Below are positions 534 through 35,479 of a stretch of DNA of 64,000 nucleotides, piece by piece. The translations under genes and the position numbers were made by a program. The stretch lies in IMG/VR virus record IMGVR_UViG_3300025030_000042; one strand, 5' to 3'. The notes under the pieces were generated by a model. That model was not told the DNA's origin. It did not search any database and saw nothing but the letters and a program-made list of their open reading frames with translations. The stretch comes from a virus. Lineage: Duplodnaviria; Caudoviricetes. The first letter of the stretch is position 1; each line of letters begins with the position of its first letter.

Positions 534-990
534 TATTCACCGTTTTTACTTTCTTTTCTATATTTTGTCTGGCTATATCTTTTCTTGTAATAAGTTTCGG
601 CATTTTAAGCGTTTTATCTTTTGATTCGGTTTTTATTCTTTGTATTTGTTCTTCTGAATATGTTATATCTACAACAAGTTCTTCTGCTTTTGCTTCTTCG
701 CTTTTCTTACTTAAAGTTTTAACATATTCTTTTGCTGGGATTAGATTAAAGATCCACACCCCAAATCGTTTGCGTTCGCTTACATTTGAACAGACGCAAG
801 ATTTGGAAACATATTTAATAAAATATCCAGCATCTTTCAGAGCCCGAGCAACATCTGAAGTTGTTATAGTAATCTTTTTTTCTCTATCTCCGCGCAAAGG
901 TAATGAAAGAGAGATGGTCACCACTCTTCCATCTGGAGATATAACAAGATTTTTTAAGATATCTATTTCTCTTTCCTTCGGAGTTTTCAT
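514..990 (-). CDS. hypothetical protein
   Basis: 158 aa ORF, overlaps neighbours. Confidence 0.7.
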   Translation of the reverse strand: MKTPKEREIDILKNLVISPDGRVVTISLSLPLRGDREKKITITTSDVARALKDAGYFIKYVSKSCVCSNVSERKRFGVWIFNLIPAKEYVKTLSKKSEEAKAEELVVDITYSEEQIQRIKTESKDKTLKMPKLITRKDIARQNIEKKVKTVNSGSSKD

Positions 991-1679
991 TCCTCACCTC
1001 TAACTAAAGAATCAAGTTCTTGTAACTTCTTATATAATGCTGGACAAATAGTTCTAATATTTAGATAATCCGCTTCTAAATAATAACTTTCAAATCCAAT
1101 CGCAAAGTATTCTCTAATACTTGTAATACTATATGGAGAAATAAAGTAACTGTTTGTCAATATATTTAATCGATCATATCCAATGTCATATAGAAGAAAC
1201 TTATCAAAATTTACATCATAGTTGATGTTGTTAAATACGCTCAAGTCGTTTTCAATATCTAAACTTTTTAACTGGCGATATAACATATGTCTTTTTAGTA
1301 AAAACTCTTTTAATAGTTCTTTGTCGTCATAAATAAAGTTTTTATATTTCTCTTCTACCGCGTGAGATATTTCGTGAACGATATCATCGACAATATCATC
1401 TTCATTTTCTTGATCATTTGTTAAATAAATCGCACCATCCTTAAAAGATGCGTTTACTTTTTTTGTTTCAAGTTCTGGAAAATAACCAATAAAAATATCG
1501 TCAACATCTTCGGTATAATACCAAGGAATGGTTTTCTCCAACCTATTTTTAACACTTTCAATGTTTATATGATCTGGAATAGAGTCTTTTATATAAAGAT
1601 ATATATGATCAAATAATTTCCACTGTTTTTTAGAAGTATTTTCAATATATTCAAAAGTTTTATTATCCATCGTCTTCAC
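987..1679 (-). CDS. HExxH zinc metallopeptidase-like protein
   Basis: IVHEISH plus downstream REYFA motif. Confidence 0.6.
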   Translation of the reverse strand: MKTMDNKTFEYIENTSKKQWKLFDHIYLYIKDSIPDHINIESVKNRLEKTIPWYYTEDVDDIFIGYFPELETKKVNASFKDGAIYLTNDQENEDDIVDDIVHEISHAVEEKYKNFIYDDKELLKEFLLKRHMLYRQLKSLDIENDLSVFNNINYDVNFDKFLLYDIGYDRLNILTNSYFISPYSITSIREYFAIGFESYYLEADYLNIRTICPALYKKLQELDSLVRGEE

Positions 1680-1956
1680 TCTTAAGATTATCCATATCTT
1701 TTAATGCTTGTTGATATCCAGCAAAAAAGTTTTCTTCTGCCATTATCAGCAATAACTCCGGAAACTCTTTTGCGATAGTTTCTAAAATCATTTCTACTGT
1801 AACATTTCCATCTTCTGGTTCGACCTGTTCTCCAGTATATTCAACTAGAAACTTTTTAAGTGGTGAATCTTCCACAGAGACGACTTTATTTTTCTCTTCA
1901 TTTTCAAAATCTTTTTCTTTTACGATCTTATCTTGATTTAAGGTAGAAGTATCCAT
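1663..1956 (-). CDS. hypothetical acidic protein
   Basis: 97 aa, AGGAG RBS, downstream of strong promoter. Confidence 0.75.
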   Translation of the reverse strand: MDTSTLNQDKIVKEKDFENEEKNKVVSVEDSPLKKFLVEYTGEQVEPEDGNVTVEMILETIAKEFPELLLIMAEENFFAGYQQALKDMDNLKSEDDG

Positions 1957-1985
1957 TGAAGTCTCCTTTAGGTTTTGAATATTTT

Positions 1986-2014
1986 ATTCTACATATTTTT
2001 AGTTTCTTTGTCAA
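1986..2014 (-). promoter_or_regulatory. sigma70-type promoter
   Basis: TTGACA-17-TAGAAT with extended TG. Confidence 0.8.
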
Positions 2015-2362
2015 TGTCTTTTTTAAATCTTGAATATTTTTTTCTAGGATCGAATGTTTTTTACTTTGTATATTTCTTTTTTATTTACTTTTTGTTTTCG
2101 TGTTCGTTTACTTTCGATCTACATACATTCGATCTTTGATCGATCTAACCACCAGTAAAGATTAAACTCCTTAAAAATCGCCTTGTCAAGCATTATTTTT
2201 AAATATTTTATTACTTTTTGTAATCATTGAAAATTTTGTCTTCACTTTGAATGAGAAATCTGTGCCATTTTAGGTGACACATAATCCATTTTTTTGTTCA
2301 GTCTATTATTCAACTAGCTTTTCAATTATTGGTACATACTTATTTATATAGGAGAAAATATT

Positions 2363-3082
2363 ATGTTTTTTAAAGTAGTAAGTTTGCTCGTTTCTTCTTT
2401 CGTTTTACTTTCGTGTCATCCAAAAATAGAAATGTCAAATATTATAAATTATCAAAAATCTGTTTTACCATTTCAATCTTTCGTTAAAATATCAAGACTT
2501 GTAAAAGTTAAAATATGTATTGGAACCAAGTGTATTGAAAGAATAGGAAAATCTAATGGTTCAGGTTCCATTATAACAAAAAAAAGTCGCGCTGGTCAAT
2601 ATGTTTTAACTGCTGGACATATGTGTGAAAAGTCTGAAATTTCACTTTTTGAAGAAGTTTCTTCTAAAATAGTTATTAGGGATTTTGATGATAACGAACA
2701 CGAAGCAACAATAGTAAAAATTGATTCTGAAAATGATATTTGTTTGTTATTATCCAGTACTTTAAATAAACCATCGATTATGATATCTTCAAATCCTTTA
2801 GAATCTGGAGAAAGAATCTATAATGTGGCTGCCCCAGGTGGTGTGTTTTTTAAACAAGTGGTTCCAGTATTTGAAGGTATCTTCAGCGGAACTACTTATG
2901 ATAAAAAATACGATGTATATTCTATTTTTGGCGCGCCCGGTTCAAGTGGGTCTATGGTATTAAACTATCGCGGCTATTTGGTTGGTATTATTGTAGAAGG
3001 ATATCGCGGTATTAATGTTATGCGTGGTCCGAACTATGATATCATCAAAAAATTTCTTTTCAGTGTTTTAAAAAAGTGTTGA
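2363..3082 (+). CDS. trypsin-like serine protease with lipoprotein-like N-terminus
   Basis: VLTAGHMC, D-ICLL, PGSSGS catalytic triad motifs; LLSC lipobox-like. Confidence 0.85.
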   Translation: MFFKVVSLLVSSFVLLSCHPKIEMSNIINYQKSVLPFQSFVKISRLVKVKICIGTKCIERIGKSNGSGSIITKKSRAGQYVLTAGHMCEKSEISLFEEVSSKIVIRDFDDNEHEATIVKIDSENDICLLLSSTLNKPSIMISSNPLESGERIYNVAAPGGVFFKQVVPVFEGIFSGTTYDKKYDVYSIFGAPGSSGSMVLNYRGYLVGIIVEGYRGINVMRGPNYDIIKKFLFSVLKKC

Positions 3083-3112
3083 CAACTTAAAATTTTGCTA
3101 TAACATATATTT

Positions 3113-3550
3113 ATGTCTCTCCCCAGTTATTGGCGTTACAACGAACTTACAAGTAAACACGATATTGATTTAAAATATTTTTCTGTTTCCAAAAATCTTA
3201 AACTTCAAAATAAAATATCTGAAGAGTTTGAGGTTATGTTAAATCAGTTATCTTTAGAAGAAATCATCGCTTTAAAACTTGAACTTGGAAGTAAGGCGCT
3301 GGGCGGAAAACTTTTTGGTTTTTCATTTTGGAAAATATTAAATAGTCTTACAAAAGATGCTATTTTGAAATATGCTTTTTCTGCTTGCGTTAACAAGTTC
3401 GAAGCAATGACATTTATAGGATTAAATCATCAAGCATTTAAAAAATATATTTACAAGTATAAAATATTTCAATATTTCAGAGCACTTACGAAACATCAAG
3501 AGCGAATGAAAATTTCTCTTGACAAGATAAAAGAGACTGATCTAACATAG
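3113..3550 (+). CDS. putative Fis-like HTH DNA-binding protein
   Basis: C-terminal ILKYAFSACVNKFEAMTFIGLNHQAFKKYIYKY resembles Fis HTH pattern. Confidence 0.45.
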   Translation: MSLPSYWRYNELTSKHDIDLKYFSVSKNLKLQNKISEEFEVMLNQLSLEEIIALKLELGSKALGGKLFGFSFWKILNSLTKDAILKYAFSACVNKFEAMTFIGLNHQAFKKYIYKYKIFQYFRALTKHQERMKISLDKIKETDLT

Positions 3551-3581
3551 ACTTGTTCGCCATTACGAAAAGGAGATTAAA

Positions 3582-3845
3582 ATGGCACTAAATAATCAAA
3601 AAAGGGATTTTGATCCGGAGAAGTTGGTAGTATTTTTTGAAGGAAAGTTTATCGTTAACGAAAGAACTGAATGTATTGCGCGTGTTTATTCTTATGATGG
3701 AGGAGAAAAGAGGATTAAAATCCTTTCGGAGCAATCTCGGCGAGATGGAACAAAGAGGATACTAAAGCAATGTCCATCTTTTTCAAATCCAGAACATATT
3801 AGTCAATTAACGCAACTACTTACGGATTGTAGTAATTATCTATAA
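3582..3845 (+). CDS. hypothetical protein, possibly PC4-like ssDNA-binding fold
   Basis: AGGAG RBS; VYSYDGGEKRIKI pattern. Confidence 0.4.
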   Translation: MALNNQKRDFDPEKLVVFFEGKFIVNERTECIARVYSYDGGEKRIKILSEQSRRDGTKRILKQCPSFSNPEHISQLTQLLTDCSNYL

Positions 3846-3854
3846 GGAAATAAA

Positions 3855-4133
3855 ATGGCTTCAAAAGATTTAACCCAACAAGATCTTTATAAAAAAGAAT
3901 ATTATGAAACTTGCCCTGTAAGACAGGGTACACCTCTCAAAGTCTCTGATCTGGAAAGAGATCCAGAGTTTAAAGATACAATGAATAAATATTTTAATGC
4001 TGGATATACTATGGCAACACCAGAAAGCTTTGAAGCAAAGTTTCCAAACGCCAACTACGATCTAATGATTAAAGAAAAGGTTATTGCTTTAATGACACCA
4101 GAAAAAACTCTGGTGCGTGAAATATTCAGATGA
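3855..4133 (+). CDS. hypothetical protein
   Basis: 92 aa, AAGGA RBS. Confidence 0.7.
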   Translation: MASKDLTQQDLYKKEYYETCPVRQGTPLKVSDLERDPEFKDTMNKYFNAGYTMATPESFEAKFPNANYDLMIKEKVIALMTPEKTLVREIFR

Positions 4134-4206
4134 AAAAGAAGAATGCCCAGTATTTTTTTTCTGGGATGTGCTTGAAAATAGTTTACACTAAAAGGAGGAT
4201 AAGTAA

Positions 4207-4290
4207 ATGCTTTATGTGCTTGTAGCAGTCACTGGATTGGCAGTAGGTCTTCTACTTCCAGTAGCACTTCGCAAAATTCAAAATCTGTAA
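4207..4290 (+). CDS. 27 aa membrane peptide
   Basis: AGGAGG RBS; MLYVLVAVTGLAVGLLLPVALRKIQNL; below ORF-track cutoff. Confidence 0.65.
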   Translation: MLYVLVAVTGLAVGLLLPVALRKIQNL

Positions 4291-4324
4291 TGCTCCAAAT
4301 TGGTTACCCTATGGGTGGATTCTT

Positions 4325-4351
4325 CCGTGTAGGATGGGACACGGTTTTCTT
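4325..4351 (+). terminator. intrinsic terminator
   Basis: CCGTGT/ACACGG hairpin followed by TTTTCTT. Confidence 0.55.
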
Positions 4352-4366
4352 AAAAAAGAGTGATAT

Positions 4367-5068
4367 ATGATATATAAAAAACACTTTTTCTTAAATAGAA
4401 AAAAGCGCAAATATTCTTCTTGTTCAAAGTGCGATGGTCAAGAAGATGGTGACAATCTTGACCCAAGAATAGTAAGAAAAGTTACTCACCCACTATATCC
4501 ATTTTTTGATGATGAGGGTGATGAACAAGAATCAAGCGGCATTGAGGTAAACGATAATCATATATTATTTTATACTAATGTCAATAAATCTAGCGCATTG
4601 ATGTTAAACAAATCGATCCAGCAACTCAATAAAGAACTTTTAATTAATTCCATCATTCTCAATAATCCTGTAGCGCATATTTATCTTCATATCAATAGTG
4701 ATGGTGGAAATCTTTTTGATGGAATGAGTTGTGTTGATTATATTCGTAATTCAAAACTACAAATCCACAGTATTGTCGATGGTTCGGCAGCGTCAGCGGC
4801 AACAATGATGTCAGTCGTTGCTAAACACAGAGCAATCAATCGTCACGGATTTATGCTTATTCATCAGTTATCTGGTGGTATTATGGGATCGTTTGAAGAG
4901 TTAAAGGACGATTGGGAAAATGCCAAAATCTTAATGGATACAATGAGAGAAATATATAAAGAACATACGAAGATTCCAAAAAAGAAATTAGACGAGATTC
5001 TTCAAAGGGACATTTGGTTTGACGCGAAACAATGTTTAGCTTATGGATTAGTGGACGAAATATTATGA
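4367..5068 (+). CDS. clpP: ClpP-family serine protease
   Basis: LHINSDGG, GSAASAA, MLIHQL, DIWFDAKQCLAYGLVD motifs. Confidence 0.88.
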   Translation: MIYKKHFFLNRKKRKYSSCSKCDGQEDGDNLDPRIVRKVTHPLYPFFDDEGDEQESSGIEVNDNHILFYTNVNKSSALMLNKSIQQLNKELLINSIILNNPVAHIYLHINSDGGNLFDGMSCVDYIRNSKLQIHSIVDGSAASAATMMSVVAKHRAINRHGFMLIHQLSGGIMGSFEELKDDWENAKILMDTMREIYKEHTKIPKKKLDEILQRDIWFDAKQCLAYGLVDEIL

Positions 5069-6458: not shown

Positions 6459-8303
6459 TTATATTCTTATTATTGCTCCTTCGTATATTGAACTCGTAGC
6501 TTGTTCATTAACAATATTCCAAGCGGTATTTTTCTCTTCTTCGGATAAATGTTCTGGCATATACTCTTTAAATAGTTTTTGATTGTCGGAAGCAATAATA
6601 TTTCTCAATTCTGTTCCGGAAATACCACTTGAAAACATCGGCGTGTTTATAATCTTTACTTTAACGCCCAACTTATTTTGATCCGACCATTCTTGTGCTT
6701 TGGAGAAGCGATCGTCTTGAGCATCTTTTTTGCCGAGACCAAACAAAATGGTGTCTCCAGGATTCATTGAAGACATAACATCATAAGCAGATTTAACCGG
6801 ACTTGAATCTTTTGAAATCATTACTTCGATCTTTGGATCGTTTTGCGTAAACATTTTCCAAAGATATATTGAAACTTTTTTGGTTATAACAACTCGTTTA
6901 TCAACGCTATGCCCCGTTCGTTCTTTCGGAGATACAAAAATATATACTTTTGTTACTTCTGGAATGTCCGCAAGATATTTGGCAACTTGATAGTGACCAG
7001 CGTGCGGAGGTTTGAACCCTCCAGGAACTACAGCTATCATATTTCCTGTATAAAGTTCATTAGAAGCGGTGTTTTGTTCAACTTTATTATACTCTACAAT
7101 AGGGGTATGATTTTTTTCTCTACCGAAGCGCTTCATTCCACAGATTTGATTCGCTGGAGCAAAGCAACCCGTCATTTTATATGCTTTATTTTTATACTCA
7201 AAAACGATGCCTTCCATAGAAGTATTTATGCGATTTAAGTCTTTTAGTTTCCGCATATTAGATAAAAGAAAGTTAATATTTTCTCTATTTCCACTGGATT
7301 TTATTTCTTCTATAGAGTCGTTTATGGTTTGACGATATTTCTTGACTGCCGAAATATGATCGTTGATTAAAACGCTATGATTTCCATTTAAAAGTTCTGT
7401 TGAAAAGTCAGTAACAATCTCTTCTAAAGGAAATAATGCTCCTTGAATAATAGAAATGGAGCGCTTTTTGATTTCTGTGATGCGTTCTTTAAGTTCTCGC
7501 GGTGAACCTTTGGGTAATACAAGTTTTTCATTACCTAAAATATTCTCAATAACGATATTTTGAATAACTTCAGATACCTCTGGAAGTCTTTTTTCTACAT
7601 ATGGTGCTATTTTTGACTTCAAATACTCTTCAATCGTATTGCTTTCGCTTGTTTTTGATGAAAATAGTAGTTTTTCAAGACTTATTTTGGCGTTTCTGAA
7701 AACAAGATCGTTTTCAAGAGGATTTAGATCTCTTACTTTATTGGAAAATATCGGAATATTGTTTTTTGTTGATTTTTTTTCCAATATTTCAAGAGTTTCG
7801 CCGATATCATAAGAAAGTTCAGCAACATTTAAAGTCAAAATCTCATTTGTCTCTGGAATATATTGTTTGTGACCGTTATTATGAATCATAATGCCGGATT
7901 TTTCGTATTCCAAAAGGTTTTTTGCGTTCGGTCCAAATAAATCGGCGTTATAAAAGACCGTTCCTTCTTGAAACATCTCTTTTTTTACATATTTTGGAAT
8001 ATGTGAGAGAGCTTCATTAAAAGATTTGAGACTTTCAATATAAATGTTCTTTACTTTGTTCCCGCCGGCAAAATCTCGCTCCAATAAGACACCAAGTGTC
8101 ATTCCGCCGGATCGAATATCACCAAGATTTCGCGCCAAAGTCGCTTGTTCATTTTTATATGATAATAAAGCGTTAAATCCGTCTATTTTTTCAACGACGG
8201 GAAGTTTTCCGGCGGATAACAAAGAAAATATTTTTTTAATATCGCGAAAGGTTAGTTCTCGATCATCGTAAATGTGATTTAAGTGACCCGATGCTCCAGC
8301 CAT
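6459..8303 (-). CDS. ligase-like (KxDG) domain fused to HIGH-motif cytidylyltransferase-like domain
   Basis: EKIDG, EGIVF..YK, then GGFKPPHAGH and ISGTELR; start re-picked at ATG 8303. Confidence 0.7.
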   Translation of the reverse strand: MAGASGHLNHIYDDRELTFRDIKKIFSLLSAGKLPVVEKIDGFNALLSYKNEQATLARNLGDIRSGGMTLGVLLERDFAGGNKVKNIYIESLKSFNEALSHIPKYVKKEMFQEGTVFYNADLFGPNAKNLLEYEKSGIMIHNNGHKQYIPETNEILTLNVAELSYDIGETLEILEKKSTKNNIPIFSNKVRDLNPLENDLVFRNAKISLEKLLFSSKTSESNTIEEYLKSKIAPYVEKRLPEVSEVIQNIVIENILGNEKLVLPKGSPRELKERITEIKKRSISIIQGALFPLEEIVTDFSTELLNGNHSVLINDHISAVKKYRQTINDSIEEIKSSGNRENINFLLSNMRKLKDLNRINTSMEGIVFEYKNKAYKMTGCFAPANQICGMKRFGREKNHTPIVEYNKVEQNTASNELYTGNMIAVVPGGFKPPHAGHYQVAKYLADIPEVTKVYIFVSPKERTGHSVDKRVVITKKVSIYLWKMFTQNDPKIEVMISKDSSPVKSAYDVMSSMNPGDTILFGLGKKDAQDDRFSKAQEWSDQNKLGVKVKIINTPMFSSGISGTELRNIIASDNQKLFKEYMPEHLSEEEKNTAWNIVNEQATSSIYEGAIIRI

Positions 8304-8304
8304 T

Positions 8305-8988
8305 TTATTCGTCCTTTTGAAATACCATATTTTTAACATATTGATTCATAAACTTTTCTTTTATTTCTGAATCATAATGATTTTCATTATATATTTCTTT
8401 ATATTTATATTTCTTCATAAAATGATATATTTCAACAAAACTAAAAAACTTATATGGAATCTTTTTTTCTAAAAAACCTTGTAACGAATAAAAAGATTGT
8501 TTTTCTAATGTTATTGGAACCCGTAATAATAAAATGTATTTTGGAGAAAACAAACAAAACTTTTCTATTATTTTATCATCATTCCAACAATATTGAATAG
8601 CAGAGTTAGAATGAATGATATCAAACTTTTGATTTAAATCAATGTTATTTATTGAAAAACGATATTCTACATTATCAATATTGCCCCTATTCTTAATATT
8701 TTCACATATTCGTTTATCTTCAATAATAATATATTTTTTAATATTTTCTTTTTCAAAAATACTTCCAAAAACATTTATAAAATGTTCACCATAACTACCA
8801 CCGTGATCTAAAATAGAAAGCGATTGTTTTTCTGATAAGAGAAGTTTCAAATATTGAATATAGATTTCATCGTGTTTAACGGACAATATTTGTCCAGAAG
8901 TATAAATGGGATATAAATAATCTGACGGTTGTCTTTCAACAATGTCTTTTATTTCGGACAATGTAAATCGTCCATCAAACATTTCCAT
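8305..8988 (-). CDS. class I SAM-dependent methyltransferase
   Basis: ILDHGGSYG motif I, FDIIHSNSAIQY. Confidence 0.75.
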   Translation of the reverse strand: MEMFDGRFTLSEIKDIVERQPSDYLYPIYTSGQILSVKHDEIYIQYLKLLLSEKQSLSILDHGGSYGEHFINVFGSIFEKENIKKYIIIEDKRICENIKNRGNIDNVEYRFSINNIDLNQKFDIIHSNSAIQYCWNDDKIIEKFCLFSPKYILLLRVPITLEKQSFYSLQGFLEKKIPYKFFSFVEIYHFMKKYKYKEIYNENHYDSEIKEKFMNQYVKNMVFQKDE

Positions 8989-16309: not shown

Positions 16310-16984
16310 TTATAAAGAATTTTTAATCTGTGAAATATGTTCGAGTGAAATATGACCGTGATCAAATTCCCAGTGATGATTTTTACAAAGTCCGATAAGA
16401 TTAGAAATATCATTTATTTCTGATATTAAAGTTTTTGGAGGAAATGAAGATATTGATTTTATATGACACGCATCAATGTGTAAAGTATAATCACATAAAG
16501 CACATTTTAACAAAAGATTATGTTTTTGGGCTATTTTCCGAGCGTGATATCTGACTCTAGAAAAGTGATTACAAGAAAACGATTTTGTTATTTTAATAGT
16601 TTCCAGCGTTAATGAGTTAGTAGGAATATGTTCTTTATCATAACAAGTTTTACAAAGATTAGTTTTTTTATCATTTAGTGGAATAGAACAAATATTACAA
16701 AAGTTAGTAAATGTTTTCACTCTTTTTGGATATTTTGTATTATTAAATATTGCAGAACATTTTTGAGAACAAAAGTTATTTGGAAACTTTTTTATTTCAC
16801 TACGAAGTTTTAAAAATGATTTATAACAGTTTAAACATTCTACTAAAATCTTACTTGAAGCATTTTCTTTTCTATAGAGTTTTGCACAATCGTTGGAACA
16901 AAAATGTTTTTTACTTCTCTCTATTCGACATTTTTGTCTTTGAAAGGATTTAGAACATCTATGACATTTTATTTGAATAAGCAT
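16310..16984 (-). CDS. HNH endonuclease with N-terminal zinc fingers (homing endonuclease-like)
   Basis: CxxC/FCSxxC repeats; CALCD..DACHI..NLIGLCKNHHWEFD; start re-picked. Confidence 0.8.
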   Translation of the reverse strand: MLIQIKCHRCSKSFQRQKCRIERSKKHFCSNDCAKLYRKENASSKILVECLNCYKSFLKLRSEIKKFPNNFCSQKCSAIFNNTKYPKRVKTFTNFCNICSIPLNDKKTNLCKTCYDKEHIPTNSLTLETIKITKSFSCNHFSRVRYHARKIAQKHNLLLKCALCDYTLHIDACHIKSISSFPPKTLISEINDISNLIGLCKNHHWEFDHGHISLEHISQIKNSL

Positions 16985-17053: not shown

Positions 17054-17125
17054 GGGGCTCGGGCGGTTCAGTAATCGCGTCGGTCTTATAAACCGAGAAA
17101 CCGTGAGCGACACACGGGAGCCCTA
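17054..17125 (+). tRNA. atypical tRNA, anticodon UAU (Ile), no encoded CCA
   Basis: Cloverleaf GGGGCTC/GAGCCCT, GCG/CGC, TCGGT-CTTATAA-ACCGA, CCGTG-AGCGACA-CACGG, discriminator A. Confidence 0.7.
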
Positions 17126-17144: not shown

Positions 17145-17585
17145 ATGACATCAACAACCGAAAAACTTTCGCTTCTGGAAAATCACATTCTCTCAAAATA
17201 TGGAATCAAAGTTGTTTATTCATATAAAGTTAAAACGGATACATATTATCCAGACAAAAAACTTATTGAAATCTGTCCTCGTCAAATAGCAAAACATAAA
17301 CTTTATTCTTTATTACACGAAGCGGGACACATTCTCATACAAACACCATACGCCAAATATGTTCGCAAGTTTCCTTTAAGTCACCAGACAACTTTATACG
17401 GAAAAGATTATCGAATAGATGTTTTACGAGAAGAATATTTTGCTTGGGACAAAGGGTTTGATTTATCAAAGGAGTTAAAACTTGATATCAATGAAGAAAA
17501 ATATTATAAGTATGCCCGAAAGTTTTTATGGGGGTATATTAAATGGTTAATGAATCCTGGTAAAAGATATCAATGGATTACCTAA
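17145..17585 (+). CDS. ImmA/IrrE-like HExxH metallopeptidase
   Basis: LLHEAGH..EEYFAW; start re-picked at ATG 17145. Confidence 0.6.
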   Translation: MTSTTEKLSLLENHILSKYGIKVVYSYKVKTDTYYPDKKLIEICPRQIAKHKLYSLLHEAGHILIQTPYAKYVRKFPLSHQTTLYGKDYRIDVLREEYFAWDKGFDLSKELKLDINEEKYYKYARKFLWGYIKWLMNPGKRYQWIT

Positions 17586-19255: not shown

Positions 19256-19993
19256 ATGCGAATCTTAAAAACTCCATTTACATTTGATATCAAAAAACAT
19301 TTTTCTGAGGAACAACAAAAAGTATTTAACATTTTAACTTCCGTTCCTGGATGTTATATTGCTGGCGGAGCTGCTTTGGCAATGTATGATAATAATCCAG
19401 TGATATTGAAAGATTTTGATGTTTATTGTAATACGAAAACCATTCGTAGAATCGTTTATAATAAAATGTATGATGTATTTGGTTCGCCGTTAAACTATCC
19501 AACTTATCCGGGAAATGGAAGTTATCTTTATAATTATTTAACTTTTTCTACACTTACACAACTTATGTTAAATAAAAGTAAAAGTTTGAAAAGCCTGTTT
19601 CGTTCATTTGATTTTACAGTTTGTTGTTTTGCTACAGATGGTAAATATTACTACTTTACTCCGCAAGCAAAACGCGATCTCATCAAAAGAGAAATCGTTT
19701 GTAATGAAATTACCAGTAATGAATTAAAAACAATATCTCGCTTAAAGCGTTATAAATCAAAAGGATTTCGTTTAAATAATGAAAAGTTCTGGAATACTTT
19801 TAACAAAAAGAAAAGAACTTTTTCTTCTGGAGATATGATTAAATCTCTATCTTTATATCACGACAAACAAAGAATATTGGTTTTAGATAAAGACAAAAAA
19901 GTTTATAAATGTTTTAATATTTATAACAAAAAGATTTATTTTGTTATATCCGATGTTCTTGAATCAAACTACAAAATCGTTAAGACAAAATGA
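19256..19993 (+). CDS. tRNA nucleotidyltransferase/poly(A) polymerase head-domain-like protein
   Basis: YIAGGA..DFDVY, FDFTVC, RLKRYKSKGF. Confidence 0.7.
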   Translation: MRILKTPFTFDIKKHFSEEQQKVFNILTSVPGCYIAGGAALAMYDNNPVILKDFDVYCNTKTIRRIVYNKMYDVFGSPLNYPTYPGNGSYLYNYLTFSTLTQLMLNKSKSLKSLFRSFDFTVCCFATDGKYYYFTPQAKRDLIKREIVCNEITSNELKTISRLKRYKSKGFRLNNEKFWNTFNKKKRTFSSGDMIKSLSLYHDKQRILVLDKDKKVYKCFNIYNKKIYFVISDVLESNYKIVKTK

Positions 19994-20591: not shown

Positions 20592-20874
20592 AGAAGATAA
20601 CGACCGATATCAAAATCAACCTTGGTATATCAAGTTATGGAGACGAAGATATTATCTTTTGATTCCATATTTTACTATTGTTTGTTATCTATATAATATT
20701 TTCATGGTGTCTAAAAACGAAGAACGATTATCTCTTAATAAATGCTGGAAAATCAATATTGGGTTAGCACAAATGAAAATGAAATGGTATTATGATTGGA
20801 ATGAAATGAAAGAGAAATTAGATAAAATAGATAAAATAAAAGATGGACAAAATAGGTTAAATAAAAATGTATAA
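20584..20874 (+). CDS. membrane-associated hypothetical protein
   Basis: start re-picked; one hydrophobic segment. Confidence 0.6.
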   Translation: MNKEDNDRYQNQPWYIKLWRRRYYLLIPYFTIVCYLYNIFMVSKNEERLSLNKCWKINIGLAQMKMKWYYDWNEMKEKLDKIDKIKDGQNRLNKNV

Positions 20875-22147
20875 TGCTATTATTGGAAAAATCAAGATCT
20901 ATCCTCACCCTAACGCAGATAGACTAAAAATGGGCGTTATTTGTAATACAACGGTTGTTGTTGGGTTAAATATTCAAGAAAATGATTTAATGATGTTATT
21001 TCCCAGTGATGGACAACTCTCTGAAACTTTTGCCATCTCCAACAATTTAATCAGTTATTCCGATCCGCAAACTGGTGAAAAAAAAGGTGGTTATTTCGCA
21101 AAAAATCGTCGCGTCCGCGCTCAAAAGCTACGAGGCGTTAGTAGTGATGGATTCGCCTGTGAACTTTCACTTTTAAAAAATGCTGGAGTATCTCAAAAAA
21201 CTATTGATTCTTTAAAAAAAGGGGATCAATTTAACGAGTTGGATGATATTTCTATATGTAATAAATATATTACGCCCGCAACAAAACAAGCGTTGGCCCA
21301 TAAGGCAAATCAAGTTAAAAAAACCAATAAAAGATTTCCGGAACACTATGAGACAAAACAGTTACGTTATGAAATCGATAAGATACCTAACTATTCAATA
21401 TTATACATAAATCTCAAAGTCCACGGAACTTCTGCCAGATATAGTTTTGTTCATGAAGAAATCGCCGTTAAACCTCCTTGGTTTAAACGCATCTTTGGCG
21501 CCAAACCAAAAACAAAACTTGAATATCGTCATCAAGTTGGCACTCGTCGAGTCATTCTTGATAACGAAAATGTTATGGATTTTCACGGAAATGTTCAATA
21601 TCGTTACGATTTTATGAAAGATATTTTTCATCTTCTAAAAAAAGGCGAACTTATCTATGGTGAAATCGCTGGATATCAATCTGAAAATGTTTCTATTATG
21701 CCATCGGTTTCAACTTCAACAATAAAAGATAAATCGTTTTCAAAAAAGTATGGTCCTACTATAACCTACAAATACGGCTGTCCTAACGGAACTCATAAGT
21801 TCTTTGTTTATAGAATAGCAATGATAAATGAAGATGGTTACATTATAGATTTACCTTGGTTACAAACAAAGAAAAGAGCAATGGAGTTAGGACTTCAGTG
21901 TGTTCCAGAGTTTGAAGGTCCATTTGTTTACGACGGCAACAAAGAAGAACTTTTAAATAAAGTATTACAATATGTAGACGGTCCGGATCCATTAGATGAA
22001 ACTCATATTAGAGAGGGTGTTGTGGTTCGCATTGAAAATGAAAACGGTGTATCGTTCTTAAAAGAAAAATCTTTTAACTTTAAAGTTTTGGAAGGAATTG
22101 CGAAAGATAATGCCGATTATATTGATTTAGAGGAACAGGAAGGGTAA
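20867..22147 (+). CDS. Rnl2-family RNA ligase with N-terminal tRNA-binding OB-like domain
   Basis: HPNADRL; KVHGTS motif I; IYGEI; EGVVVR; LKEKSFNF. Confidence 0.85.
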   Translation: MYNAIIGKIKIYPHPNADRLKMGVICNTTVVVGLNIQENDLMMLFPSDGQLSETFAISNNLISYSDPQTGEKKGGYFAKNRRVRAQKLRGVSSDGFACELSLLKNAGVSQKTIDSLKKGDQFNELDDISICNKYITPATKQALAHKANQVKKTNKRFPEHYETKQLRYEIDKIPNYSILYINLKVHGTSARYSFVHEEIAVKPPWFKRIFGAKPKTKLEYRHQVGTRRVILDNENVMDFHGNVQYRYDFMKDIFHLLKKGELIYGEIAGYQSENVSIMPSVSTSTIKDKSFSKKYGPTITYKYGCPNGTHKFFVYRIAMINEDGYIIDLPWLQTKKRAMELGLQCVPEFEGPFVYDGNKEELLNKVLQYVDGPDPLDETHIREGVVVRIENENGVSFLKEKSFNFKVLEGIAKDNADYIDLEEQEG

Positions 22148-23118: not shown

Positions 23119-23278
23119 ATTTTATGTGTCTGACAGTTGGCCATGGCAGCCAGTATATCACACGCGCCTTTTTGGCGCCGGCGTCCTTCGGCGTCTCCAC
23201 GGGCTGCACAGACGCCTTCCGGACGACGCTGGAGAACATTCATCAAGTCAGCTCTCCATCGCCGTCATACAATAAAAT
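23119..23278 (+). ncRNA. candidate structured ncRNA (multi-branch)
   Basis: GC-rich island in AT-rich DNA; closing stem plus four hairpins; G-U pairs favour plus strand. Confidence 0.5.
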
Positions 23279-35409: not shown

Positions 35410-35410
35410 G

Positions 35411-35479
35411 TTCCTGGGAAAGGATTTGAACCTTTACTTGGGATGATCAGTCCTGCCTCTACCATTGGGCTACCCAGGA
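35411..35479 (-). tRNA. tRNA-like element with 3-bp anticodon stem (loop CUGAUCA)
   Basis: TCCTGGG/CCCAGGA, GCC-CAATGGTAGA-GGC, GGA-CTGATCA-TCC, AAAGG-TTCAAAT-CCTTT; ends A-CAA. Confidence 0.65.

Follow-up and report, generated by a model that had tools for sequence, protein, structure and literature searches.

AUA isoleucine codons are served in phages and bacteria by more than one kind of tRNA. T4-like phages carry a lysidine-type tRNA-Ile with a CAU anticodon (PMC1524935), which needs the TilS enzyme of the host, whereas TilS-independent tRNA-Ile(UAU) is known from Mycoplasma mobile and other bacteria devoid of TilS (PMC3575796). The M. mobile system depends on an adapted isoleucyl-tRNA synthetase (IleRS), and the published examples have a canonical core. 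Here we describe a candidate tRNA-Ile(UAU) gene at positions 17054-17125 on the plus strand of a 64,000-nucleotide stretch of DNA (hereafter the window) from IMG/VR record IMGVR_UViG_3300025030_000042, the source being an uncultivated groundwater phage with an AT-rich genome of about 211 kb that is found in many assemblies. Like the tRNA-Ile(CAU) of T4-like phages the gene would be a phage-borne supply for AUA decoding, and like the M. mobile tRNA-Ile2(UAU) it has an unmodified-type UAU anticodon, suited to reading AUA without lysidine. Unlike the published UAU examples, it couples this anticodon to an atypical tertiary core. We favour the view that it is a working phage tRNA-Ile(UAU) without encoded CCA whose non-standard core is compensated, and put the probability of this reading at roughly 0.6.

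Precedents for parts of this core are found in other molecules. The T loops of tRNAs are of the UUCRA type and go with G18, whereas those of riboswitches follow YGNRA, with G at loop position 2 and an intercalator that is almost invariably adenosine (bioRxiv 10.1101/2022.12.26.521914). Eukaryotic initiator tRNA, for its part, contains an A54-A58 pair (PMC7912444). The phage gene resembles the riboswitch T loops in its G at position 2 and its candidate intercalating adenosine, and eukaryotic initiator tRNA-Met in its purine-purine pair 54-58. These likenesses are no more than structural analogies in different molecules.

The gene is built from the following parts.

17054-17125, plus strand: tRNA-Ile(UAU) gene of 72 nucleotides, comprising tRNA positions 1-73 without position 47, CCA not encoded
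17054-17060 and 17118-17124, plus strand: acceptor stem, 5' strand GGGGCTC and 3' strand GAGCCCT, with a G1-U72 wobble
17061-17062, plus strand: G8 and G9, G8 standing in place of the usual U8
17063-17078, plus strand: D arm, stem GCGG/TCGC and loop TTCAGTAA, aligned by the covariance model as U14 U15 C16 A18 G19 U20 A20a A21, with AG at 18-19
between the D arm and the anticodon arm, plus strand: G26
17080-17096, plus strand: anticodon arm TCGGT-CTTATAA-ACCGA, with U33, A37 and A38
17087-17089, plus strand: anticodon TAT
17097-17100, plus strand: variable region GAAA, A48 lying opposite U15
17101-17117, plus strand: T arm, stem CCGTG/CACGG with G53-C61 kept, and T loop AGCGACA, that is A54 G55 C56 G57 A58 C59 A60
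17125, plus strand: discriminator A73, followed by the letters TAT, so that CCA is absent

Read through, it is GGGGCTC GG GCGG TTCAGTAA TCGC G TCGGT CTTATAA ACCGA GAAA CCGTG AGCGACA CACGG GAGCCCT A. The stems measure 7, 4, 5 and 5 base pairs, the anticodon and T loops 7 nucleotides each, and U33 and a purine at 37 are in place. The initial annotation had described a cloverleaf with standard spacing, a C-U-UAU-A-A anticodon loop and A73, combined with G8, a D loop without GG, the T loop AGCGACA and no CCA; the sequence agrees with this description in every detail. The anticodon loop (C32 U33 UAU A37 A38) is fully canonical, and its TAT distinguishes the gene from the lysidine-type CAU substrates of TilS. 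From the near-universal core set, G19, C56, A58 and G53-C61 are present.

Might such an arrangement of letters arise by accident? The minimum free energy (MFE) fold of the 73-nucleotide RNA is the cloverleaf (-29.8 kcal/mol, z = -3.09), with an equally good fold in 1 of 200 shuffles, and the cloverleaf is retained in a fold of the entire intergenic region; that wider fold contains no larger structure (z = -0.89). A custom scanner, which considers structure only and no conserved nucleotides (D loop of 7-11 nucleotides, variable region of 4-5), identified the gene as the sole cloverleaf with 21 of 21 pairs on both strands of the window. When the window was shuffled in 200-nucleotide blocks, no such cloverleaf emerged in 150 trials, the background being 0.14 sites per window at one mismatch or fewer and 1.74 at two or fewer. 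Fifteen of the 21 pairs are G-C despite a genomic GC content of 32%, and the gene is one of very few GC-rich islands outside a block at 25-37 kb. Because scanning very many windows yields a few perfect cloverleaves by chance, the locus might conceivably be a fortuitous cloverleaf, or else an element acting at the DNA level, such as a site for protein binding or recombination, rather than an RNA gene. We consider this highly improbable in view of the empty shuffled windows, the 15 G-C pairs, the additional presence of canonical U33, A37, G53-C61, C56, R57, A58 and A21, the significance of the tRNA-model match (E = 1.4e-6, see below) and the weaker fold of the opposite strand (-25.9 kcal/mol); a search of the surroundings revealed neither repeats nor an integrase that would fit a DNA element. 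Two further candidates were rejected, namely a tRNA on the minus strand, which folds worse and has arms unlike those of a tRNA, and an attP site or tRNA 3' fragment, given a full-length cloverleaf and no integrase nearby.

Standard scanners overlook the gene. ARAGORN with default settings does not call it, its sole call in the window being a tRNA-like gene at 35410-35479, yet at 99% of the threshold (-ps99) it reports 17054-17125 as tRNA-Ile(tat); for comparison, a 95% threshold produces 4 calls per 100 shuffled windows. Likewise, Rfam searches with standard filters missed the gene both in the 64 kb and in a 401-nucleotide segment, in the latter even at E <= 10. When the filters were relaxed and 81 nucleotides were searched alone, the tRNA model RF00005 returned 35.3 bits (E = 1.4e-6) in an alignment that spans model positions 1-71 of 71 and contains no non-standard pair. 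As this exceeds the gathering score of 29, the curated criterion places the gene in the tRNA family, and nothing but the primary-sequence filters causes it to be lost. The warning that scanners may miss it was thus justified, but the margin is narrow.

Demand for AUA decoding is high in this phage. Across 58 long open reading frames (ORFs) of the AT-rich part, ATA makes up 267 of 955 isoleucine codons (28%), or 22.9 per 1000 codons, and its reported frequency is thereby borne out. When the phage GroEL is aligned with a solved chaperonin, its six ATA codons fall on I, I, I, L, I and V, from which it follows that ATA means isoleucine; a reassignment of AUA to methionine was rejected on the same grounds. 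Novelty had been claimed for a TilS-independent AUA decoder, and here the initial annotation went too far: apart from the bacterial examples (PMC3575796), such tRNAs are common in viral contigs. An IMG/VR search with the 17-nucleotide anticodon arm of the gene matched nine contigs, in five of which the 17-mer forms the anticodon arm of altogether six tRNA-Ile(tat) genes called by ARAGORN. A viral UAU isoleucine tRNA is ordinary.

How does the gene compare with these viral counterparts? The tRNA-Ile(UAU) genes of contigs L022, L023, L024 and L025 share with it the identical anticodon arm, A73 and a class I cloverleaf of 72-76 nucleotides, but their D loops (GG) and T loops (TTCRA) are canonical and default scanners call them, whereas the gene has G8, U14, U15, A18, A54 and G55. 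The combination of G1-U72 with A73 is common to the gene and the tRNA-Ile(tat) genes of L017, L018 and L022. All six genes have canonical T loops except that of L018, which reads ATCGTTA (A54...U58). Those at L017:2116-2212 and L018:4517-4608 are 92-97 nucleotides long and extend a long extra arm with GAU in its loop; they are like the gene in UAU, G1-U72 and A73, in the case of L018 also in an A54 T loop, and unlike it in that its variable region counts 4 nucleotides. In two contigs of one sample (L017:1987-2057 and L020:500-580), the same 17-mer occurs as an isolated hairpin with no further tRNA around it, which could be a fragment or a stand-alone mimic of the anticodon arm.

The unusual part of the gene is its core, in which four contacts are changed (18/55 to A/G, 54/58 to A/A, 15/48 to U/A and 8/14 to G/U) and G19-C56 and G53-C61 are kept. 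An IMG/VR search with a consensus D arm carrying A18 (AGCTCARYYAGTAGAGC) matched at least 120 contigs. Among the matches listed, to which all counts of this paragraph refer, G55 is found in 54 of 60 distinct, well-paired viral tRNAs that had been chosen only for the A18 arm; their T loops include TGCAA, GGCAG, TGCGA, AGCAA and others, and they represent 19 anticodons, TAT among them. We then consider 535 distinct ARAGORN tRNAs from the same pattern-chosen loci that were not themselves selected by the pattern. In this set, a D loop with AG is combined with G55 in 51 tRNAs and with U55 in 7, and a D loop with GG is combined with G55 in 8, with U55 in 441 and with C55 in 17. Put differently, A18 is present in 51 of 59 unselected G55 tRNAs and U55 in 441 of 466 GG tRNAs. 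Covariation of A18 with G55 across viral tRNAs is strong. CCA is encoded by 49 of 97 tRNAs of the G55 class, compared to 261 of 467 with U55. Eleven G55 tRNAs have a T loop beginning with AGC, and therefore A54, and nine of these clearly have A18, including two tRNA-Ile(TAT).

The remaining variants recur as well, and each of them covaries in other viral tRNAs. Several viral tRNAs, again including two tRNA-Ile(TAT), combine A18 with the T loop AGCAA, and AGCRA T loops are present in at least seven viral tRNAs besides the gene; a viral tRNA-Ala has the T loop AGCGA, with a D loop (CATTCAGGAG) that leaves positions 18-19 ambiguous. One tRNA-Lys(CTT) with A18 and AGCAA shares 81% identity with the tRNA-Lys(CTT) of mycobacteriophage Whirlwind, which is canonical; both have the same D and T stems, and they differ at just these elbow loop positions. 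In a set of 480 viral tRNAs, G8 is never found with A14, whereas it is found with G14 in 8 and with U14 in 4, the usual U8 with A14 accounting for 419. U15-A48, which keeps the complementarity of the Levitt pair, occurs in 4 other viral tRNAs of the same set (usual A-U, 122; G-C, 118).

With the D loop TTC-AG-TAA and the T loop A-G-C-G-A-C-A, the gene belongs to the A18/G55 class, whose shared features are an A18-G19 D loop and an N54-G55-C56-R57-N58 T loop. Most members are unlike the gene in that they keep U8, A14, R15 and U54 and often form whole arrays, whereas the gene is single and carries extra core changes. It thus combines two known kinds, the viral tRNA-Ile(UAU) and the A18/G55 elbow, and is distinctive in stacking four core variants in one molecule. 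The idea of a rewired D- and T-loop core put forward in the initial annotation is accordingly correct in so far as the core is atypical, and has to be given up in so far as it was held to be private to this gene. The same applies to that account as a whole: a tRNA-family gene with an Ile(UAU) anticodon stands, and both claims of novelty were overstated.

The class itself deserves description. It is found in IMG/VR contigs L036-L155 (for instance L048:72-145, L114:6666-6739, L076:4035-4110 and L148:9485-9558), where it makes up whole arrays with many anticodons and with T loops of the types TGCAA, TGCGA, GGCAG, GGCGG and AGCAA, and it is rare in 552 sampled bacterial genomes. The A18 arm was detected in 0 of 401 Bacillota and 1 of 151 Bacteroidota genomes, the GG version of the D arm in 99 of 101 genomes, with several copies in each. 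The lone Bacteroidota match (L157; genome G513, contig 1, 1078022-1078094) is a Val(aac) tRNA with the T loop TGCGAGT, hence G55, and may be borne by a prophage. Searching cultured phages by BLAST with four A18/G55 viral tRNAs returned relatives with canonical elbows only, or nothing, and no published description of the class was found in the literature searched, the coverage of which is incomplete. The L018 phage array (IMG/VR 3300029305_007047, 976-4608) carries other compensated elbow variants: in 4 of its 14 tRNAs the T loop is ATCGTnn, with the 54-58 pair swapped (A54...U58), and in three a D loop with GA goes with the T loop TTTGA (A19-U56 and not G19-C56).

How might a tRNA with such a core function? 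We envision that the gene would be transcribed together with the surrounding plus-strand genes, that the precursor would be cut by RNase P and a 3' nuclease, and that the host CCA-adding enzyme would then complete the 3' end. The product would be charged with isoleucine by IleRS and used on ribosomes, where it would supply AUA decoding without lysidine and TilS. Each of these steps, from transcription onwards, is an inference. The L-shape would most likely be maintained by a compensated, non-standard tertiary core. In place of G18-Psi55, A18-G55 may create a T loop of the riboswitch type, with the adenosine intercalating beside the G at loop position 2; A54-A58 may replace T54-A58 as in eukaryotic initiator tRNA; and G15-C48 may give way to U15-A48. 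U8-A14 may be exchanged for G8 with U14. Alternatively, U14-A21 and U15-A20a may extend the D stem: the MFE fold offers such a D arm, lengthened by these two pairs to 6 base pairs and closing a CAGU loop, in which case the 8/14 and 15/48 contacts would simply not be formed.

Several observations weigh against a working tRNA-Ile(UAU). This one gene has G, U, A, A and G in place of U8, A14, G18, U54 and U55, and the five changes occur together in no other single tRNA examined here. A score of 35 bits is low for a phage tRNA, ordinary ones reaching 50-73 bits and an odd tail 32-40. In a scan for promoters and terminators, promoter-like matches did not exceed chance level and a terminator was not found; the nearest sigma-70-like pair recognised by eye (TTGAAA-16-TATTAA) would start transcription inside the acceptor stem. 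Loop-anchored degenerate patterns retrieved no homologue from viral, metagenome (241 million records) and genome (185 thousand species) collections, and the locus is 100% identical in every contig, assembly and run examined, so that it offers no population covariation. Further difficulties concern charging. A UAU anticodon is charged poorly by E. coli IleRS (PMC3575796). The E. coli identity set for tRNA-Ile, as summarised there from Nureki et al. 1994, consists of loop positions 34-38, A73, C4-G69, U12-A23 and C29-G41; A35, U36, A37, A38 and A73 are all present in the gene, but the three pairs are absent, being G4-C69, G12-C23 and G29-C41 instead. The E. coli set scored here may not fit the host of the phage, since viral tRNA-Ile(tat) genes have the same G29-C41 arm. 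Moreover, the GAU-bearing extra arm of several phage tRNA-Ile(UAU) genes is missing, which makes charging the weakest step of the proposed pathway. Finally, the three further tRNA-like genes of the phage (see below) are each aberrant in a different way, and the phage may keep tRNA-shaped RNAs for purposes other than decoding.

Could the gene then be a relic, a recently acquired or inactivated tRNA gene that was perhaps brought in with the adjoining HNH endonuclease gene? Its low model score and failure at the primary-sequence filters, its orphan status, promoter and terminator signals not above chance, the mobile-type HNH neighbour and its nature as a GC-rich island within AT-rich DNA would all suit such an origin. 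Indeed, relatives were sought widely. Neither megablast nor blastn returned anything relevant when 50,697 phage records were searched with the locus, and exact searches with a 44-mer and a T-arm 17-mer retrieved the phage itself only, together with chance matches that form no cloverleaf. With the downstream ORF, a tblastn search produced a sole match of 30% identity in the uncultured huge phage LR756502, a record that a model search of its entire length showed to hold no homologue of the tRNA element; a search of 5.8 billion proteins returned just the ORF itself. IMG/VR searches for related loci with this ORF and with the DUF2201 protein uncovered no relatives, a model search of the window no paralogue of the gene, and a search of the neighbourhood no flanking repeats that would point to a mobile cassette. 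The reads and contigs of four DNA runs contain no sequence variant of the locus.

Other features argue against decay and, to our minds, render a relic distinctly unlikely. About 8 of some 18 conserved unpaired positions are changed, whereas none of the 42 stem positions is unpaired. Had the gene drifted away from a canonical ancestor, loop changes at such a rate would predict many hits in the stems as well; neutral decay would be very unlikely to alter so many loop positions and break 0 of 21 pairs. The altered states of the tertiary positions all recur and covary in other viral tRNAs, and assemblies that span several studies and years carry an identical sequence. The loop changes, the 42 of 42 paired stem positions and the GC-rich stems in AT-rich DNA together imply that the fold has been selected or that the gene arrived very recently; in terms of sequence, this indicates selection acting on the fold and not neutral decay, unless arrival was very recent.

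A stronger rival is a selected, tRNA-shaped RNA with a job outside decoding, and the surroundings of the gene bear on it. The gene occupies a 160-nucleotide gap between a divergent HNH gene and a small HExxH ORF, and the phage has three further tRNA-like genes.

16310-16984, minus strand: HNH endonuclease gene (Pfam HNH_2, E = 5.8e-9)
17145-17585, plus strand: HExxH metalloprotease-like ORF (phrog_87 metallo-protease, E = 6.7e-6), starting 19 nucleotides past the tRNA
35410-35479, minus strand: tRNA-like gene, Ile GAU, 70 nucleotides, with a shortened anticodon stem and C37 (RF00005, 43.4 bits)
L032 4603-4676 and 4680-4764: two adjacent tRNA-like genes upstream of recA, about 17.5 kb past the end of the window

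The GAU gene has canonical acceptor, D and T arms and does not encode CCA; this gene and the UAU gene would between them serve all three isoleucine codons. One gene of the L032 pair has an odd anticodon loop, to which ARAGORN can assign no anticodon, and the other is a tRNA-Asn(gtt) with a long variable arm. All three have canonical elbows, the oddities residing in anticodon or variable arms.

Conceivably, the RNA might lure away a host enzyme or a defence nuclease that recognises the anticodon loop of tRNA-Ile, or compete for it; it might be a sponge for IleRS or a modification enzyme; or it might be a signal for processing by RNase P/Z, through which the mRNA of the metalloprotease-like gene 19 nucleotides downstream is released or stabilised. 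Intact stems and an intact anticodon loop alongside five changed near-universal core nucleotides would be expected of such a molecule, and that all four tRNA-like genes of the phage are odd, including the second one in the window with its shortened anticodon stem, points the same way. So do the position of the element directly before an ORF that has no separate promoter and the presence of RNA ligase and Gad2-like counter-defence genes within 4 kb. A precedent exists in a non-proteinogenic tRNA-Gly of S. aureus, which lacks G18/G19 and U55/C56, is nevertheless aminoacylated and is used off the ribosome (PMC4574755). This tRNA-Gly, however, has lost G19-C56, binds EF-Tu weakly and serves cell-wall synthesis (PMC4574755), whereas the phage gene has kept G19-C56 and shows a swap at 18/55 that covaries. 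The A18/G55, AGCRA elbow is used by whole viral arrays with many anticodons and a normal rate of encoded CCA, as in ordinary decoding tRNAs; normal viral tRNA-Ile(UAU) genes have exactly this anticodon arm; AUA demand is high; and among the genes adjoining the element none was identified as a partner nuclease, toxin or synthetase. On balance, a role outside decoding seems to us rather unlikely, though it is the rival that we take most seriously.

Also near the gene are a MoxR-type ATPase, a DUF2201 protein, a Gad2-like nucleotidyltransferase and an RNA ligase. PDB sequence searches with three of the neighbouring proteins returned no match, and no IleRS gene was seen in the window. The Gad2-like gene is a 245-residue ORF (19256-19993, plus strand) that matches Pfam PF26128 (Gad2) and a phrog nucleotidyltransferase, which suggests a possible anti-Gabija counter-defence gene; the RNA ligase gene (20867-22147) comes after it. 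Upstream, 6459-8339 on the minus strand encodes a 626-residue protein with a ligase-like KxDG motif and a cytidylyltransferase-like C-terminus. The strongest GC-rich island of the AT-rich non-coding DNA lies at 23124-23267, with up to 73% GC in 60 nucleotides; it has no Rfam match at gathering level, and its sequence is unrelated to the tRNA element. Mobile elements other than the HNH gene near the tRNA are found in core genes of the phage on contigs L026/L030 (window-equivalent about 64-81 kb): the DNA polymerase III alpha region contains an intein, and the large subunit of ribonucleotide reductase a LAGLIDADG domain.

What would a working tRNA-Ile(UAU) imply? The case shows that tRNA finders at default settings, like Infernal searches run with filters, under-call phage tRNAs, and analyses of phage codon supply, including that for AUA, can therefore be incomplete. 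If the gene does not serve decoding, it would be a selected tRNA mimic whose target is worth finding. The gene also adds a case to the viral class of A18-G55-elbow tRNAs. This class may have arisen as an escape from enzymes by which the T-Psi-C corner is recognised. A bolder and, at present, doubtful proposal is that the gene is an extreme member of a virus-enriched group of working A18-G55-elbow tRNAs, with A54-A58, U15-A48 and G8/U14 in addition. As neither m5U54 nor Psi55 can be present in tRNAs of this kind, any host enzyme or defence nuclease that relies on the universal T-Psi-C/G18 corner would fail to see them. On this proposal, the UAU anticodon would provide the phage with a means of AUA decoding that is independent of both TilS and the canonical elbow. 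If the gene works, the supposedly universal core of tRNA in a bacterial system could be rewritten far, with four tertiary contacts changed at once and the L-shape still usable.

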